A DNA stretch of 55,903 bases, filler included, from Platydemus manokwari (Eukaryota): assembly GCA_037951405.1 (NCBI GenBank). It is 5 parts of 5 records of this genome, joined end to end, with 100 filler letters (N's around TTAATTAATTAA, not from the genome) between each part and the next. Parts side by side here need not be neighbours in the genome. Positions count along the whole stretch, not along the records: positions 21,634 to 35,303 come from JBBMOY011651402.1; 4 more parts are not named here. One strand, 5' to 3'. Within the stretch, counting starts at the first letter, position 1. Each line of letters begins with the position of its first letter. Made by a program: the position numbers and the translations under genes. Below the pieces are notes generated by a model. The model worked only from the letters and a program-made list of their open reading frames with translations, did no database searches and was not told the origin of the DNA. Shown piece by piece: positions 8,401-35,458 of the stretch.

Positions 8401-8938
8401 TTCTTTGGAAAAATAAATGGAAATCATTTTAATTTATTGGCTGAAGTTAAGAAAAGCCTTAATACAATAAAGTTGTAAATTTCCTGTACTGTTTTTAAAA
8501 AAATTGTTTTATTAAATTCATTGAAAACATTTTGAATTTTTGGTTTAATCAGAATAAGAATGATTTTAGTCGTTTAGAATCTAAAATTAAGTTAACTTTA
8601 AGTGCGCCAAAATATTTCATAGTGTAACTAAATGAAAATTAATGATTTTCCCCTTTTTTGAAAACTTGAGAAGCAATTCGAATTTTCATATTTGTTTTAT
8701 GAAAACAATTAATTTGCAATTATCACAGGGTTTTGTGGGGTCATTTTAAATTATAAAATATTAAATAATAAAATATTATAAAAATAAAACTAAACAAATG
8801 ATTTATTATCATTCAAAAATTGCCCATATCACAGTTGCTTCTTATCGCAGTCCAAAACTGAAATGACAGAGGTAATGACTACATGATAAAGTTAAAATTA
8901 ACATTTGGTGTGAGACTTTATGAGTAAACCAGATAAAT

Positions 8939-9038
8939 NNNNNNNNNNNNNNNNNNNNNNNNNNNNNNNNNNNNNNNNNNNNTTAATTAATTAANNNNNN
9001 NNNNNNNNNNNNNNNNNNNNNNNNNNNNNNNNNNNNNN
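8939..9038. other. Assembly gap with TTAATTAATTAA linker
   Basis: N-run + TTAATTAATTAA + N-run, 100 nt in total. Confidence 0.95.
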
Positions 9039-9349
9039 ATATATTGAAGGAAGATGAGCTATTGGAAAATAATAGACTGAAATTGTAATTAATTCAATAT
9101 TCTAAAACAGGATAATTTTTATTAAATTAATTCAAGATAATAAATTCATATTTTCATGATCTTTCTCTGTCAATGTTTTATTAAATATCATGAATTCTAG
9201 GATATTGCTTTTTGAGGTTCGTGTGAAATATATTTCCAGTAAATATATATTCAATACCATTCTTTATTTAAATTAATAAAATATTTCATTAATTTCACGA
9301 ATCCTCATTCATCATTTCAGAGAAAGATATTTTCGCATAAACTACAAGG

Positions 9350-28800: not shown

Positions 28801-30055
28801 GATATAGAAAAAGCTTTCCTATTTATACACTTATTAACAGTGCTTCTTACTCTAGAAAAATAGAACTTTCAGAAAGTAAACTTATTAATCGAGATAATAA
28901 ATGAAAAGCGTAATGTAGCATTTATATGTGAACATCACATCCTGAGCAACATAAATTTAGCATGTTAAGTAAGAATGACGAATATTCATGATAATTTTCA
29001 ACAAAGTAATCAATCCCATTCTCGTCTAAATGGACAATGACATTACATATCGCATTTTCTTGAAATCCACAAAACTACATGCTTCATCATGCCGACGATA
29101 GCATGGTTGTCTAAAAGACATGAAATGACTTCAAGATATAGCACTAATAGATGCACATAAGCAAAAATATAATAGTAGCTTCGAATTTAAGGCAGAGAAA
29201 TATGGAAGACTCTGTAACATCAAAGTAGGAAATAAACAAAAAGAAAAAAGTGATAATCATAAAGTTAAAAGAAAAATAATCATCTAAGATCAGAGTGAAA
29301 GTCTACTATCAGTAGTTATGCATAAATTATGTTCACGCATTAAAAAATCTTTCAAAGAATTGGTCACTTACGAAACACTACAAAACTGATTCTTTACTTT
29401 TCACACTGATTACATTCCATCCAGTCTCTCTTTGCTATATTTTAGATTTTATTGACATTTTAAACGATCTTATGAATTTTGTAATGGGATTCAATACATA
29501 ATTTCTATTCATATATTTTTATTTTACTTTTATCTCATATTATCCAATTGATCAATGGTTTATAATGGACCAAACATAATAGTAAAAAATTATTAAACCA
29601 TTTAATGTGAAATAAACGTGTTCTTTAAAAATAATTTAAAATTCACATAATAAAGACTGCTAAAAACATGAGAATTTGAATCATACATGGATTGAACAGT
29701 GTGCTGATGTTATCTTAAAATAAATATAATAATAAAAATAGAAAAATTACTTGATTGACATTTTTAATAATTCCAAATAGATGATGTTAAACATGTTCCA
29801 CTGCACAAATCGTTAATAATTAAACATCATTTACAATACATTTGATAATTTGATCACTTACAATGAGCATTGCTTAGAAATCCATTACAGTTGGAATGGA
29901 CAATACAACAGCACATATAAAGAGTTAATTGGCATTTTCATCACCATTCCAGATACAACAAAGCAATTTACGTTAAATAACTGAAATGGAAATTTTACCT
30001 AATTTCTGATTATCATGAATTGAACTGGCAAATGAAATAGTTCTTCAAAATTCTT

Positions 30056-30273
30056 TTATGGTTTCACAAAATGATATCCTTGCCAATTTTGATTTGATTT
30101 CTTCCGACTTGCAGGCAGAGTACTGCTAGTATACATCACTAATACACATGACCCTTTAGTATTATCATAGAAGAATGATTTGCATTGATTTTCACGAACA
30201 CATCTGCAAACAAATATCAACACATTATCAAATTTAATAAAATATTTTACAATGAAGCACAATGTAGTATAGT
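30056..30273 (-). pseudogene. C-type lectin + PAN protein, copy 3, 5'-truncated
   Basis: Exon 2 (30203-30056: CVRENQCKSFFYDNTKGSCVLVMYTSSTLPASRKKSNQNWQGYHFVKP*), intron 30250-30204, and only the last codons of exon 1 (TILHCAS(L), cf. TKLHCGSL). Everything upstream is unrelated sequence. Confidence 0.85.
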
Positions 30274-30507
30274 AATCTAGTAATCCTGATAGTAATAGTA
30301 ATGTTAATATCAAGAATGATAATCAGCTACCGTCAGCAACAGATAACTTTAAACAGAAACAGAAGAACCCAGGATACTCGATGTTAAAAGTACAGTACAT
30401 AATGTATCTGGTGTATAATGTAAAGTATAAAGTACAGTACATAGTGTATCTACTGTATAAAATAAATCGTTTAAGTGTTTTTGTAAAACAAGTATTTATA
30501 TTTTAGA

Positions 30508-32043
30508 ATGAGCCACAAACTCACAGAAACAGATGAAACTACCATGCCCAAGAGAAAAGGAATATCAGTAAAGAAGACGGTAAAAGCCCGGATCTTTCAT
30601 GACAGAATAGAAGCGTTTATGAATGTAAACCATTGGAGGCAGACCAATATTACAAGGGTACAAGATATGCCCAATTGCCTAAAGGAAAAAGCAGTTGGAG
30701 AAAGGCACCTCGTCAATCCAAAGAAAAATTTGGGGAGTTGAACAGCGACTGCCTCCTAATCTAGAATCACAGATCCTTTTTGCGAATGAAAATGACGGAG
30801 AAGGATATTAAAAGAAGAGTGCGATTTGTCTATGTGGCATTAGCACAACCGGAATTCGCCAGTGGGCTTGTTCCGATAGCTGTTCATATTAGATTATCAA
30901 GGGCAAGTGACGTATTCTAACGTAATTACCCCCAAAGCTCAGCTTTTGGATTACCGAACGACTCAACATGGCCTAATTGAAGAAACGATTCAAGGAAGAA
31001 GAGATGAACTATTGGCCAAAGAGGAAGTCAATAAACTATTGAAGGGAACAATAGTTATCGGCCACAGAGTATTAGAAGGACTAATAGCTCTGAGAATCAC
31101 CCTTGGAGACCTATGTGGAGTGAAGGAACTATAAAATTTGCCAGTATTTGGAGAAGATAGCGTAAAGAGGAGTAAAGGGAGATTCACTCTCCAAAGATTT
31201 GCAAGTCAATATATCGGCTACGAGTTCCCGAGAAGATTTACGAAATATGAAAAAAGTCACATAGTGGAAATAATAAAGAAAATCTAACTTGCGGGGAAGC
31301 TAGGTGGACGGATCATTACTTATTCGAACCCAAGGAAACCAGAGAAGAAAGGAAGGACAAGGAAGAAACCAAGGTGTGAATCCCGTCCAAGAAAATAGAG
31401 CAGCCCAAGAAAACAGAACAGTCAAAGAAAACGGAACAACCAACGAAGAAAAAGGAGACTGGGAAGACTCAAATCTCATCACGGATAATGCAAAAACCCA
31501 GACCATCCACAAGCAGTGGAACAGGAGAATGCCAACCCTCCACCAATAAAAGGATTAAGTTAGAGGAAATTGATATTAAATAGATGCTATGGGACACTCC
31601 AGACTCTGTAGAGATTCTGGATGAAGATGAACTATGGAAATATACTAAAAGCCTTGATTTGGACAACCCAGAGTCCAAGATTATATACGAGTGGCATACT
31701 CGCGCGGAGGTGGAAGAGAAGAGATACTTCACCCTGGAAGACGAAGAAGTGCAGCCACAAGAATCCCAAGCAAGGGAAAGTCGAGAGGGTACAGTCCCTG
31801 GAAGAAAGAATCGCAGAGTTGGAACGCAAAGGCGCAAAAAAGCAAATTCAGAAAAGAAAAGAAAATGGAAGGAGGCGAAGACGCAATTCGACCTTAATGA
31901 AGTCCCTCTCCAACAAATCCAAGAGGATGGGGACATATTTCAGCTAGGCTATTTAGCCTATTTCTGTAAAAGAACCGGAGAAGAGCGCCGTATCAAGAGG
32001 AAAATATGAGCGCGGAATTAGAAATGAAAAGACATTGAATTAG
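30508..32043 (+). pseudogene. Decayed ~510-codon accessory ORF with a Rex4/ISG20-like DEDDh 3'-5' exonuclease fold and a charged C-terminal tail
   Basis: Read across frameshifts and stops: ..AVHI/DYQGQVTYSNVITPKAQLLDYRTTQHGLIEETIQ..AKEEVNKLLKGTIVIGHRVLEGLIALRI..FTLQRFASQYIGYEF.., matching the Rex4 pattern VN..G.V.YD.YVKP...V.DYRT..SGI..V..LLKGRILVGH....DL..L..SLK.LA...LG. Then KKxEQ(P/S) x3, an acidic block and a coiled-coil/basic end. Confidence 0.75.
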
Positions 32044-32160
32044 AATTTTGATTGTGATTTTAATAATGATTATATTTTTGGGCGAATTAATAAATGTATT
32101 TTGTTGTTTGATTTTATTGTTTTTGAGATTAGGAAATTTCAAAAATTTTGAGGGGGCGAA

Positions 32161-33120
32161 TGAAGAGTACACATTGTAAAAATAGTTAAATACAAACGAA
32201 AGTAAATTTCTGAAAATAAAAGTTAAGTTTAAAGATAAAGAAAATAAATTAATTTTATTAAAATTAGATAATAAAGTAGAAAAATAATTTTTAAATTAAA
32301 TTATTAATAAGAAAAAAATAATTATTTGAATAAATAAAAAAAATAAGAAATTTTAAATTATTATTAGAAAAAAGAAATTTGTTTTAACAAATTAAAATAA
32401 TTATATAGAAGCCAAGATTTTAAGAAATTATCGATCAACATCGGGTGATATTGATCCAAATGTAGGAGTTGAATATACATGTCAAATCGGGTTAGAGAAA
32501 AGTGCTGCAAGTGGTGCGAACACAATAACAGTATATAAAGGCGAACTTATAGTGAACAAGTCATAATTAATCAGGACCAAAGAAGCGTAGTGATTAGAAA
32601 TCAGGATTATCAAAAGCCCACAAGAAAGAATAGTGAATTGTTTTATCAGGAAACCTTAGAAGAGCAAATCGACAGGTTATTTTGTTTTTGATTTCAGTAA
32701 TAGTGAAATATTCGAGGAAGTAGTATTCCCGAATATTGAAATCAGTAAATTAACTAGTGATAGAATATTCGCGGATAGTATCCCGAATATTAGTTTTTCA
32801 ATTGTATTGTGATATTCGTGGACAGTGCTTCCCGAATATCGGTATTGTATTGTAGAGTGTATAGAGCGTCCGTACCCCGTTACGCACGCTGGTAGTTTGT
32901 AGTATCGACCAGGAGTAGTCCTCGGTCAGTAATTCAAATTGGTGAGCGGACCAGTTCCGTGATTATAACAAAACTTTATTAGGGGCTAGGCCTTTTGTGT
33001 GATTAATAAAGAGTTGTATATATACTGTTATAGAAATATAACTTAGTGTGCAACTTTGTTTTGAATTTGGACTCAGGTTATTACGAGGATTGTTGCGCTC
33101 TACACTCGGTAGACCCAACA
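32161..33120 (+). mobile_element. LTR family copy B (3' LTR, 960 bp)
   Basis: TG...CA termini, preceded by a PPT; TATATAAA at ~32533 and AATAAA at ~33005; colinear with 51505-52445. Confidence 0.85.
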
Positions 33121-34494
33121 TTATTATTATTATTACTATTATTATTATTATTATCAAGATATTAAACAGATAATTATGGAGAACATAATAATAACAAAAC
33201 AATAATAATTATATTAATAATACAATAGTAAATAAGCCAAGCGAATAAAATAAAACCCGTAATAAGATTTATTTAAGAAACTAAAAATTTAACAAGAACA
33301 AAAAGAGCAACAAAGAACGGCAAACCGTGAAATGCACTATTAAAGTAGATTTTGGATAAAAATCTAACTGAGGGATATGAAAAATACAAAATGGAGCCGA
33401 CTATTGTTATTAATAAATGATTAATTTAATTAATTAATTTTTTTAAGAATTTATTACAATGCTATGACTAAATATGATACGAAATTTAATCACTCTTAAA
33501 ACTCCATAAATCTCCTTGTCAGTTCGGTTTCCGTGTAATCTCGAAATAACTCCTGCTCTGGTAGACTTAAGAATTTTTTTTAGTGAGTAAATACTACAAA
33601 CAGTAATTTCTTAATTAATAATTTTTGAACTGATGACATCGCTTATCACGTCTCCATTTATTTTAAACATTTTATTTAATATATGGTGATTTTCTCGTTT
33701 TTTCCAAATTTAATGTCTCTATTCTATTTCATTTGTTAATAACTATATAGCAATTTTTTGTTTTAGCATTTTATATCTCGTTATTATTTTTATTTGCTTT
33801 TTATTTATCATCGATTATTAATTACAGGATCTGTAATTCGGTGATATACGTAGCCTTGAATACTCGATTGTTGAGCTATTTGAAGTCAAAATTGATGAAA
33901 CATTCAACTCTATGTTAACTTACGGTAACATTTATTTCCTCAGTATTTTTGTGAGAATATAATTTGGTGACTAAAATTTTTTTACTTGCTTTTGATTCAA
34001 TTGAGAAATTTAATATTTACCGATAACAACATTGGCAATATTGATAGAATTGAATAAATGTAGACCCATTTAGTAGAAAACCCTTTAGCAGAATTGATTT
34101 GTAAACTATCTCCGTCGATTTTCAACTAAGAAATTTTTTAAAAATATTCTTACCACTTTTTTCTGAATTTCATAGTGATAATTTTTATTTATTTATATTT
34201 TTTAATCATAAGAATTTTTTCTCTGAAAAATATAAACATCTACTACTTTAAGTCAATTAATTCATTAATTTTTAAAATAAACCTAATTTATTTAAAACAA
34301 AAAATTAACATTTGGTTTAAAAATTAAAACAAATTATTGCTAATATATTTATAAAGCCGAAATTATAATTTCACCAACCTAACAAAATTTATAATCGAAA
34401 AACAGAAAGCAAAACATTTATTGCATCAATTCAAAAATTCCAAAAGCGATAAAATAATCAAGGAGGTCTAAAGATACAACAAAACTCAATTCTT

Positions 34495-34751
34495 TCAACG
34501 ATTGCCATTCATAGAGGTTCCGTGTAAGTATTTTTTTTCTAGATACATTAATTCAGGTGGGATGAGATTCGAGCCATTTATTCCCTTTACACTAATTCGA
34601 CTAGGACGCACCATAATGCCATGATCAGGTGGGCATACAAAATATCGCTTATTTAATACCAACCCATCGTGTTTACCAGTTTTATGACGTAGCTCAATAC
34701 CAACCCATATACCATCCGAAAAGTTAACGGATCCAACATATCGAACGATAC
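34495..34751 (-). CDS. Terminal exon encoding a CAP-Gly domain, CLIP3/CLIP4-like
   Basis: Acceptor ..taatgacAG, then GIVRYVGSVNFSDGIWVGIELRHKTGKHDGLVLNKRYFVCPPDHGIMVRPSRISVKGING..*. GK(N/H)DG motif present; the VRPSR-x4-GING tail is typical of the last CAP-Gly of CLIP4-like proteins. Upstream exons not found. Confidence 0.88.
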
Positions 34752-35303
34752 CTGTCATTATAAACTTCATTAAAATCGTTTACAAAATAATGCAAATTTG
34801 AATGAATCACACGTGTCTTGGATTAAACGATTAATTTTGTATTATCGGATTAAATAAATAATGATTGCAAATCTACGAATAATAATGTTGATATAGACAA
34901 ATGATCTTCGTCTTACCATAAAAATTAATGAACAATTAAATTTTAAACAATATTGATTACAATCTAAAATATATAATGAGCACTGAGAATATTAAAATAA
35001 CATTTCGTACAAATGTCAGTGATCGAATTACTTTAAAATATCGCAGCGATTTTAAAATTAAACTGATTTATGTTAGAAAGTAATTATAATCATAAAAAAA
35101 TACTTAATAAATTAAACTTTATTATTTCTATTCATCACATTGGATATAGGACATGGAAAACTGTTGGTAATAATGGCAATCACAATAATAAAGATCGTGT
35201 TATCAATATTGGCAATAATAATACAGGGAAAAATAATAATTATAATGTGTACAAAATAGGAAATAATAACAATAATATGAAAATGATATTAATAAATCAA
35301 TTA

Positions 35304-35403
35304 NNNNNNNNNNNNNNNNNNNNNNNNNNNNNNNNNNNNNNNNNNNNTTAATTAATTAANNNNNNNNNNNNNNNNNNNNNNNNNNNNNNNNNNNNNNNNN
35401 NNN
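35304..35403. other. Assembly gap with TTAATTAATTAA linker
   Basis: N-run + linker + N-run, followed by (TTA)n at 35404-35460. Confidence 0.95.
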
Positions 35404-35423
35404 TATTATTATTTTTATTATTA

Positions 35424-35458
<35 letters not shown>

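Follow-up and report, generated by a model that had tools for sequence, protein, structure and literature searches.

Tandem AGU-triloop hairpins in long terminal repeats of Platydemus manokwari: look-alikes of iron-responsive elements and candidate RNA signals of a retroelement family

Pseudo-triloops have been described as protein-binding motifs in epsilon, TAR, the foamy-virus R-U5 region and BMV (PMC1636360), and stem-loops within R are a frequent feature of long terminal repeats (LTRs; PMC2664473). The iron-responsive element (IRE) combines five features, namely a C14-G18 pair, AGU at positions 15-17, a single bulged U or C at position 19, a bulged C8 and a five-pair upper helix; viral pseudo-triloops tolerate the loss of the 3′ bulged base, whereas IREs do not (PMC8466369). 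The cis-acting RNA signals of LTR retrotransposons outside yeast are poorly mapped, and the LTRs described below carry a short, precisely defined and testable motif.

The window, meaning the whole stretch of 55,903 nucleotides of P. manokwari DNA analysed here (GCA_037951405.1, five joined parts), is part of a repeat-rich animal genome. It has about 26% GC, is nearly free of open reading frames (ORFs), is rich in AAT runs and contains CAP-Gly, PAN and RT-RNase H fragments; the planarian background is more than 70% A/T and gypsy-rich (PMC11410931; general background in PMC6431247, PMC8532177, PMC3904948 and PMC8252951). Four short repeated stretches, in both orientations, at 8913-9060, 21507-21717, 35278-35458 and 46752-46981, have as their cores two 44-base N runs around a 12-base palindrome, which are filler between the joined parts. 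Paralogous C-type-lectin-like and PAN-domain gene fragments lie in opposite orientations at 24934-26983, 29854-30322 (minus strand) and 48328-48906 (minus strand). A sigma-70 promoter scan gave matches at chance level and is irrelevant to a eukaryote.

Three related LTR ends and their surroundings were delimited as follows.

32161..33120, plus strand: LTR A, 960 bp, TG...CA, with a purine tract directly upstream and an ATT run downstream
51505..52445, plus strand: LTR B, 941 bp, TG...CA, about 79% identical to LTR A
17743..18135, minus strand: 3′ module of LTR C, an LTR in which the sequence further upstream shows no alignment to A or B
32150..32160, plus strand: candidate polypurine tract, its role suggested by its position
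32532..32563, plus strand: TATA box (32532-32539) and putative start site (TCA, with its A at 32563, 31 nt on)
33035..33063, plus strand: candidate poly(A) signal set, comprising AATATA, CA at 33051-33052 and a T-rich tract, with TGTA upstream at 33015
30487..32009, plus strand: broken accessory gene, just before the purine tract of LTR A

Homology between A and B starts at 32161/51505 and stops at 33120/52445, and the assignment as LTRs draws on the TG...CA ends, the dispersed copies, the purine tract at A and the succession of a TATA box and poly(A)-type signals. Three LTRs had been proposed from the sequence; A and B are full length, but the third, on the minus strand, shares only its 3′ ~390 nt with them and has its own TATA-like box at 18485-18479 and a possible 5′ end near 18859. 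Since the purine tract abuts LTR A, the sense strand is the plus strand, and the reversed orientation was ruled out by this tract together with the strand of the ORFs. We read LTR A as the 3′ LTR of a decayed element. An LTR pair, a target-site duplication, a primer-binding site and a linked gag-pol were not seen for these LTRs in the window, and at LTR B neither a purine tract nor a target-site duplication was found. A CAP-Gly host-gene exon (34498-34752, minus strand; two relatives, 83% identity) lies between LTRs A and B, which are therefore unlikely to bound one element. Assignment to the Ty3/gypsy superfamily is a guess. On the minus strand lie a decayed gag-like and RT-RNase H fragment at 22300-23400 (Pfam E=1.4e-18) and a separate stretch at ~20290-21120, beside an AAT run, that ends before a TGGTGAC primer-site-like motif; both are at most candidates for a link to LTR C. 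Both full-length LTRs abut ATT/AAT trinucleotide runs (33121-33154; 52446-52609), which suggests microsatellite targeting or expansion; AAT runs have reportedly been linked to planarian LTR elements in work by Grohme from 2018.

The TATA box and start are kept in LTR B (51881-51888 and 51912). Identity between A and B is 88% up to the TCA, drops to 64% for 200 nt (58-61% in shuffled sequence) and then gives way to a module common to C, and further downstream the LTR ends are 68-83% identical. We infer a start site at 32563. Near the end of all three LTRs, TGTA, AATATA, CA and the T-rich tract are kept and would be the poly(A) signals, with AATAAA occupying unrelated positions in each copy. Placing the promoter at the conserved AATATAAC, close to where the LTR ends, was considered and rejected; a poly(A) signal would then have no space, and the zone lacking ATG that is described below begins at the upstream TATA box.

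Seven hairpins reported by the sequence-only reading were all recovered, each at its exact position and on its strand. They represent two paralogous slots, a and b, in the three related LTR ends, plus one duplicate, and are not independent copies.

32707..32737, plus strand: H1, slot-a duplicate with its loop displaced by 2 nt
32764..32791, plus strand: H2, slot a, plain U-AGU-A triloop, 3′ bulge absent
32811..32840, plus strand: H3, slot b, CAGUG loop, 2-nt 3′ bulge, passing the SIREs core rule only at its limit
52122..52151, plus strand: H4, slot a, one upper pair broken
52185..52214, plus strand: H5, slot b
18103..18131, minus strand: H6, slot a, 1-nt 3′ bulge
18032..18061, minus strand: H7, slot b, best IRE look-alike of the set

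The motif pattern matches seven times in the window and never in 50 dinucleotide shuffles, so that the hairpins are not due to chance. A covariance-model search built from the seven found no eighth copy in the window, its next best match scoring 16.1 bits (the training copies, which match by construction, score 51.8-65.6). None turned up in phages either. The common build is a lower stem of 8 (8-9) pairs, a one-base 5′ bulge, an upper stem of 3 (3-4) pairs and a Y-AGU-R triloop. In the stable fold, the 3′ bulge after the AGU loop has two bases in four hairpins, one base in two and none in one. The bulged base is A, C or T and the loops are CAGTG (three), TAGTG (two) and TAGTA (two), both as had been listed. 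Pairing between loop positions 1 and 5 had been said to be always available; the sequence permits it in all seven, but the minimum-energy fold shows the cross-loop pair in H2 and H4 only. Slot a (H2, H4, H6) has an A-U outer pair and a U-AGU loop in every copy and is preceded by TAG in all three LTRs; slot b (H3, H5, H7) has a G-C outer pair and CAGUG in every copy. Nine of the 12 pairs per hairpin are invariant, two show a two-sided change and one is broken once. With the outer pairs bound to their slots and nine of 12 pairs invariant, the covariation amounts to one old event per pair; the A-U versus G-C difference put forward as covariation is thus real, but it is one event among copies that are not independent. 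In LTR B, AATAAA lies inside a third hairpin between the twins (52157-52184), which has a weaker equivalent in C and is lost in A.

It had also been proposed that the hairpins, lying downstream of the TATA box, are transcribed. They do lie there, 144-277 nt past the inferred start, in an ATG-poor stretch such as a 5′ leader would have, and ATG depletion makes their transcription probable. From the inferred start to the LTR end (32563-33120, 51912-52445 and 18455-17743), one sense ATG is seen where 30.2 are expected, and ATG is the most depleted of the 64 trinucleotides. Only four of 1036 550-nt windows lack ATG, all four inside these LTRs; around LTR A no ATG occurs between 32480 and 33175. 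Counted by themselves, the three leader parts that cannot be aligned contain one ATG against 7.0 expected (1 of 500 shuffles). Antisense ATG is depleted as well (6 against 24.4 expected), for which a sense leader does not account and which may reflect antisense transcription from the LTR or be a consequence of stem pairing. The same leader parts (32564-32706, 51913-52121 and 18455-18132) are rich in TTTCAG (7 against 0.4 expected), TCAGT (5 against 0.7) and GAAGAA (9 against 0.36), which resemble acceptor, initiator or splicing-enhancer motifs.

A long, structured and nearly ATG-free leader would suit a role in translation, with the hairpins recruiting host factors for Gag synthesis by an IRES-like or shunting mechanism. 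Loss of upstream ATGs, however, suits ordinary scanning, which stable hairpins obstruct; the window links no start codon or gag to the leader, and the antisense depletion is again not accounted for. We regard this explanation as having a rather slim chance. The hairpins could also act in 3′ end control, as the HIV poly(A) hairpin and the HTLV-1 R structure do, by hiding the signal of the 5′ LTR or by bridging signal and cleavage site. Comparable R structures are described (PMC2664473), and LTR B has its AATAAA (52160) between the twins, enclosed in a separate stem; but C reads GATAAA at this place and A has lost the hexamer, and the conserved signal set lies 195 nt further downstream, which leaves this explanation improbable.

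The sequence-only reading had likened the hairpins to IREs and proposed that the RNA of the element is coupled to host IRP and iron status. The resemblance is measurable, in that two of the seven just satisfy the SIREs core rule and one is matched by Rfam below the threshold, but two of the five defining features fail throughout. AGU is present at positions 15-17 in all seven, shifted by 2 nt in H1, and a C lies exactly 5 nt ahead of the loop in six (7 nt from the loop pentamer in H1). The C14-G18 cross-loop pair is found in three of the seven, all in slot b, its place being taken by U-G in two and U-A in two. A single bulged base at 19 occurs in two of seven stable folds; N19 is C or U when the sequence is read in the IRE register, which is unstable. 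The bulged C8 and the five-pair upper helix fail in all seven hairpins, the best upper helix forming four of five pairs, one of them G-U, beside a U-C mismatch. In every minimum-energy fold C8 has a G as its partner; its computed probability of being unpaired is below 0.001 in six copies and 0.085 in H4. The price of forcing it open is 6.0 kcal/mol for five copies, 3.6 for H3 and 1.6 for H4, and for six of the seven the energy of the canonical IRE fold is positive. The early caveat that the canonical C can pair with G is therefore borne out throughout and is the decisive point. On these computed folds, the hairpins have an IRE-like apex and are not members of the IRE class.

Searches gave the same picture. 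The best match in the Rfam IRE covariance-model scan was IRE_II on H7 (15.8 bits, E=2, cut-off 30), in an alignment that requires looping out the G. Scans of the whole window and of 32650-33130 gave no Rfam IRE match at E<=10, H4 and H5 being covered by the whole-window scan only, and the Rfam and tRNA scans returned no family above its cut-off, that is, no ribozyme, no IRE and 0 tRNA. The SIREs check was made with our own script, which covered motifs 1-2 and a loose YAGWR loop out of a scheme that also includes 16 SELEX motifs and a quality score (rule from PMC2896125). Out of 17 candidates it passed three, namely H3, H7 and 51953, the last of which is not conserved; a shuffled window gave 0.32. 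In both H3 and H7 there are one mismatch and two G-U pairs, together with G25, for which SIREs issues a warning because it pairs with C8 (PMC2896125). We discarded 51953, which has -2.5 kcal/mol, adopts a fold in a different register and has no counterpart in A and C.

That the hairpins are atypical IREs, bound by host IRP/cytosolic aconitase and tying element RNA to iron status, draws on the AGU triplet in all seven, the spacing of the C in six, the two copies that pass the scripted rule and the alignment of IRE_II to H7. With 144-277 nt between them and the cap, the hairpins would be remote for an IRE that represses from the 5′ end. The earthworm ferritin IRE, in which C8 is predicted to be paired (0.9% canonical fold), binds IRP weakly in vitro (PMC4184891), so that low-affinity IRP binding of the hairpins may be possible. 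Against this stand the pairing of C8 and the unfavourable canonical fold in six of seven copies, the imperfections of both SIREs passers under a rule that also passes shuffled sequence, and an Rfam score of about half the cut-off; moreover, a U14-G18 pair binds yet does not regulate (PMC8466369), and Schistosoma ferritin mRNAs are described as lacking an IRE (PMC9128280). Taken together, we hold IRP coupling to be very unlikely, and the packaging or dimerisation stem-loops that the sequence-only reading named as an alternative are the better lead.

Conservation is concentrated in the stems of the twin hairpins, where 43 of 44 columns are invariant, against 83 of 98 in other stems and 94 of 155 unpaired columns (Fisher p=2e-7 for twin stems versus unpaired columns). 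Neutral relics left behind by a local duplication would fit the second duplication of slot a in LTR A and the decay of all copies, but the near-invariance of the stems in LTR ends that are just 68-83% identical downstream, and the retention of both slots in three subfamilies with unalignable leaders, render that highly improbable. Further downstream in LTR A, two hairpins show changes of the kind expected of paired RNA.

32907..32927, plus strand: further conserved hairpin, with one compensatory change (A-U/G-C) and one G-U change
32937..32956, plus strand: further conserved hairpin, with one compensatory change and two G-U changes

The downstream hairpins contain two compensatory changes, and one-sided changes there yield G-U rather than A-C by 7:1, or 6:2 with a fold that is blind to G-U. 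RNAalifold gives -62.9 kcal/mol with a favourable covariation term (-1.21) for the sense strand and -50.6 kcal/mol with an unfavourable term (+3.12) for the antisense strand. Single-sequence folding z-scores do not separate the strands (-2.3 to -4.0 sense, -3.3 to -3.9 antisense). Because there are only three LTR ends, this covariation is too thin to serve as proof of RNA structure.

Invariant stems fit a DNA site equally well. The inverted repeats could be degenerate heat-shock elements (HSEs) or sites of another dimeric transcription factor, with the hairpin a by-product of palindromy. In agreement with such sites, the stems keep their sequence instead of covarying, folding z-scores are equally good for the two strands, all six one-mismatch nGAAn triplets of the three LTRs lie in the hairpin arms, and HSE-driven LTRs are proven in a flatworm (PMC12801592). 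Heat-shock-like arrays, which had been suggested as an alternative, nevertheless find little in the details. Perfect nGAAn triplets number 0 in the three LTRs, with three perfect units in none of the seven hairpins; slot b has TGA where the first GAA is expected, and the arms are spaced 22-25 nt apart, out of phase, where one array would need 20 or 30. The window holds 34 one-mismatch triplets, and 10 shuffles hold 17-40, which is no enrichment. In Macrostomum LTRs, the HSEs that work have the canonical form and precede the start site (PMC12801592), whereas the hairpins here lie past the inferred one, and a DNA site leaves the conserved AGU loop and the free bulge unexplained. A DNA-level function is, in our judgement, unlikely, though it retains some weight.

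We consider it somewhat probable that the hairpins are cis-acting RNA handles of an LTR retroelement family, of the epsilon/TAR type, for a protein of the element and serving packaging or dimerisation. At their distance from the start they would head the conserved structured module, in R, and so at both RNA ends, or in R/U5, where an RNA-binding protein encoded by the element would read loop and stem and mark the RNA for packaging. Gag/nucleocapsid would be the most likely reader and the cupin-ISG20-like accessory protein described below the second. The 3′ bulge of 0, 1 or 2 nt fits viral pseudo-triloops and not IREs, because the viral ones tolerate its loss (PMC8466369). TAR is cap-proximal and these hairpins are not, which counts against such handles, as does the window itself, in which a gag or pol belonging to these LTRs was not established. 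The sequences, their conservation, the predicted folds, the LTR anatomy and the scarcity of ATG are observed; the start, the R/U5 boundary, the binding of a protein, its identity and the function are inferred.

Being self-complementary, the hairpin copies can also take up other folds, a nested rod or a duplex between molecules, and such refolding would help dimerisation or end-to-end pairing. The nested fold is better than the twin fold for H1-H3 of LTR A (-44.9 versus -39.0) and for LTR B (-29.3 versus -25.5), equal for H2-H3 of LTR A and worse in LTR C. Once long-range pairs are permitted, the local hairpins of H1 and H3 in LTR A are mostly lost, as they are at equilibrium in LTR B (P 0.00-0.26). 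For all ten pairs tried, the duplex is predicted to be stabler than two hairpins, by 2.2-11 kcal/mol, which is unspecific and true of any hairpin. The difference in outer pair between the slots fits local and not nested pairing, suggesting that it is the local fold that has been selected.

The broken gene just before LTR A contains an ISG20/REX4-type DEDDh exonuclease domain at ~30771-31284, which is interrupted twice, by a change of frame close to 30880 and by a stop codon (31132-31134); in PDB, the domain matches human ISG20 (E=2.8e-6). Its protein has 63 relatives at E<=0.001 (best E=1.7e-17), none of which shows an RT or integrase domain, most showing the exonuclease family only or nothing. 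One relative of 420 aa has a good predicted fold (pLDDT 84) with cupin-like and ISG20-like domains. Many relatives retain the DEDDh residues, while the copy in the window and two close relatives lack the first acidic motif. The N-terminal piece (30487-30738) gave a family match at a probability of 3%, which is not significant, and the ORF of the tail (31584-32006) had no homologue and no match to the tail of a relative. The family, with its cupin-like domain, ISG20/REX4-type exonuclease and disordered tail, may be more novel than the hairpins, and our literature search found no description of a cupin-ISG20 accessory gene. That it is borne by the element is a lead only, resting on one locus.

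ISG20 is reported to bind the lower stem of HBV epsilon without cutting it and to need more than nine stem pairs (PMC9157404), and the hairpin lower stems, at 8-9 pairs, fall short of this, which speaks against an ISG20-like partner. It is nonetheless conceivable, at a slender chance, that a circuit similar to Rex/RexRE or Tat/TAR exists, in which the cupin-ISG20-like protein attaches to the twin hairpins of R through their AGU triloops and either protects the RNA or switches it between twin and nested or dimer folds; IRE mimicry might then let host IRP compete for the loops. The missing first acidic motif fits an RNA-binding pseudo-nuclease in such a circuit.

In the open-licence literature we found no report of an IRE-like or pseudo-triloop hairpin in a retrotransposon LTR, and the hairpin pair, which is real, probably represents a hitherto undescribed case of an LTR RNA signal whose kind is known. 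It sits in a structured, almost ATG-free leader beside an accessory gene family with dozens of unnamed relatives, and binding by a protein of the element or by IRP would make this a retrovirus-style regulatory loop in a retrotransposon. That IRE look-alikes can arise from a general pseudo-triloop motif is a caution for IRE prediction in transposon-rich genomes.

Compared with known systems, the hairpins share with IREs (Rfam RF00037/RF02253) and the TFRC 3′ UTR array a length of ~30 nt, an AGU apex, a possible 1-5 cross-loop pair, a C five bases before the loop and an arrangement in tandem. They differ from these in pairing C8 with G, in a bulge of free identity at position 10, in an upper helix of 3-4 pairs, in U-G or U-A closing pairs in four of seven, in a 3′ bulge of 0-2 nt and in falling below the Rfam cut-off. 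HSE-bearing LTRs (ONSEN; Macrostomum Mag, CsRN1 and Gmr1; PMC12801592) likewise have nGAAn/nTTCn units within the LTR, whereas here there is no canonical triplet, the position is past the start and the arms are out of phase. Bdelloid LTR retrotransposons have an extra 3′ exonuclease gene too, a DEDDy ORF3 (PMC5408684, whose available text does not mention a hairpin or stem-loop); the gene here is of the DEDDh (ISG20/REX4) type and is fused to a cupin-like domain in relatives. With Ty1/Ty3 (PAL, CYC5/CYC3 and the Gag-binding pseudoknot; PMC4974528) the hairpins have in common self-complementary 5′ motifs and possible dimerisation or circularisation; the likeness is not based on sequence, and the R of Ty1 is dispensable for retrosome localisation (PMC4974528). 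HIV TAR, HTLV-1 RexRE and retroviral R stem-loops (PMC2664473) also place a hairpin in R downstream of the TATA box, with an accessory gene just before the 3′ LTR, but the present hairpins are not cap-proximal, no env or retroviral genes were seen in the window, and the cupin and DEDDh domains are unrelated to Tat or Rex. Relative to the apical stem-loop of HBV epsilon (PMC1636360), the loop here is AGU rather than UGU, the bulge is on the 5′ side, a priming bulge is absent and there are two to three short copies. What the two would share is a pseudo-triloop, here a putative one, with a single-base stem bulge, in a cis element of a reverse-transcribing element that would here, too, lie at both RNA ends, and in HBV its lower stem is bound by ISG20 (PMC9157404).
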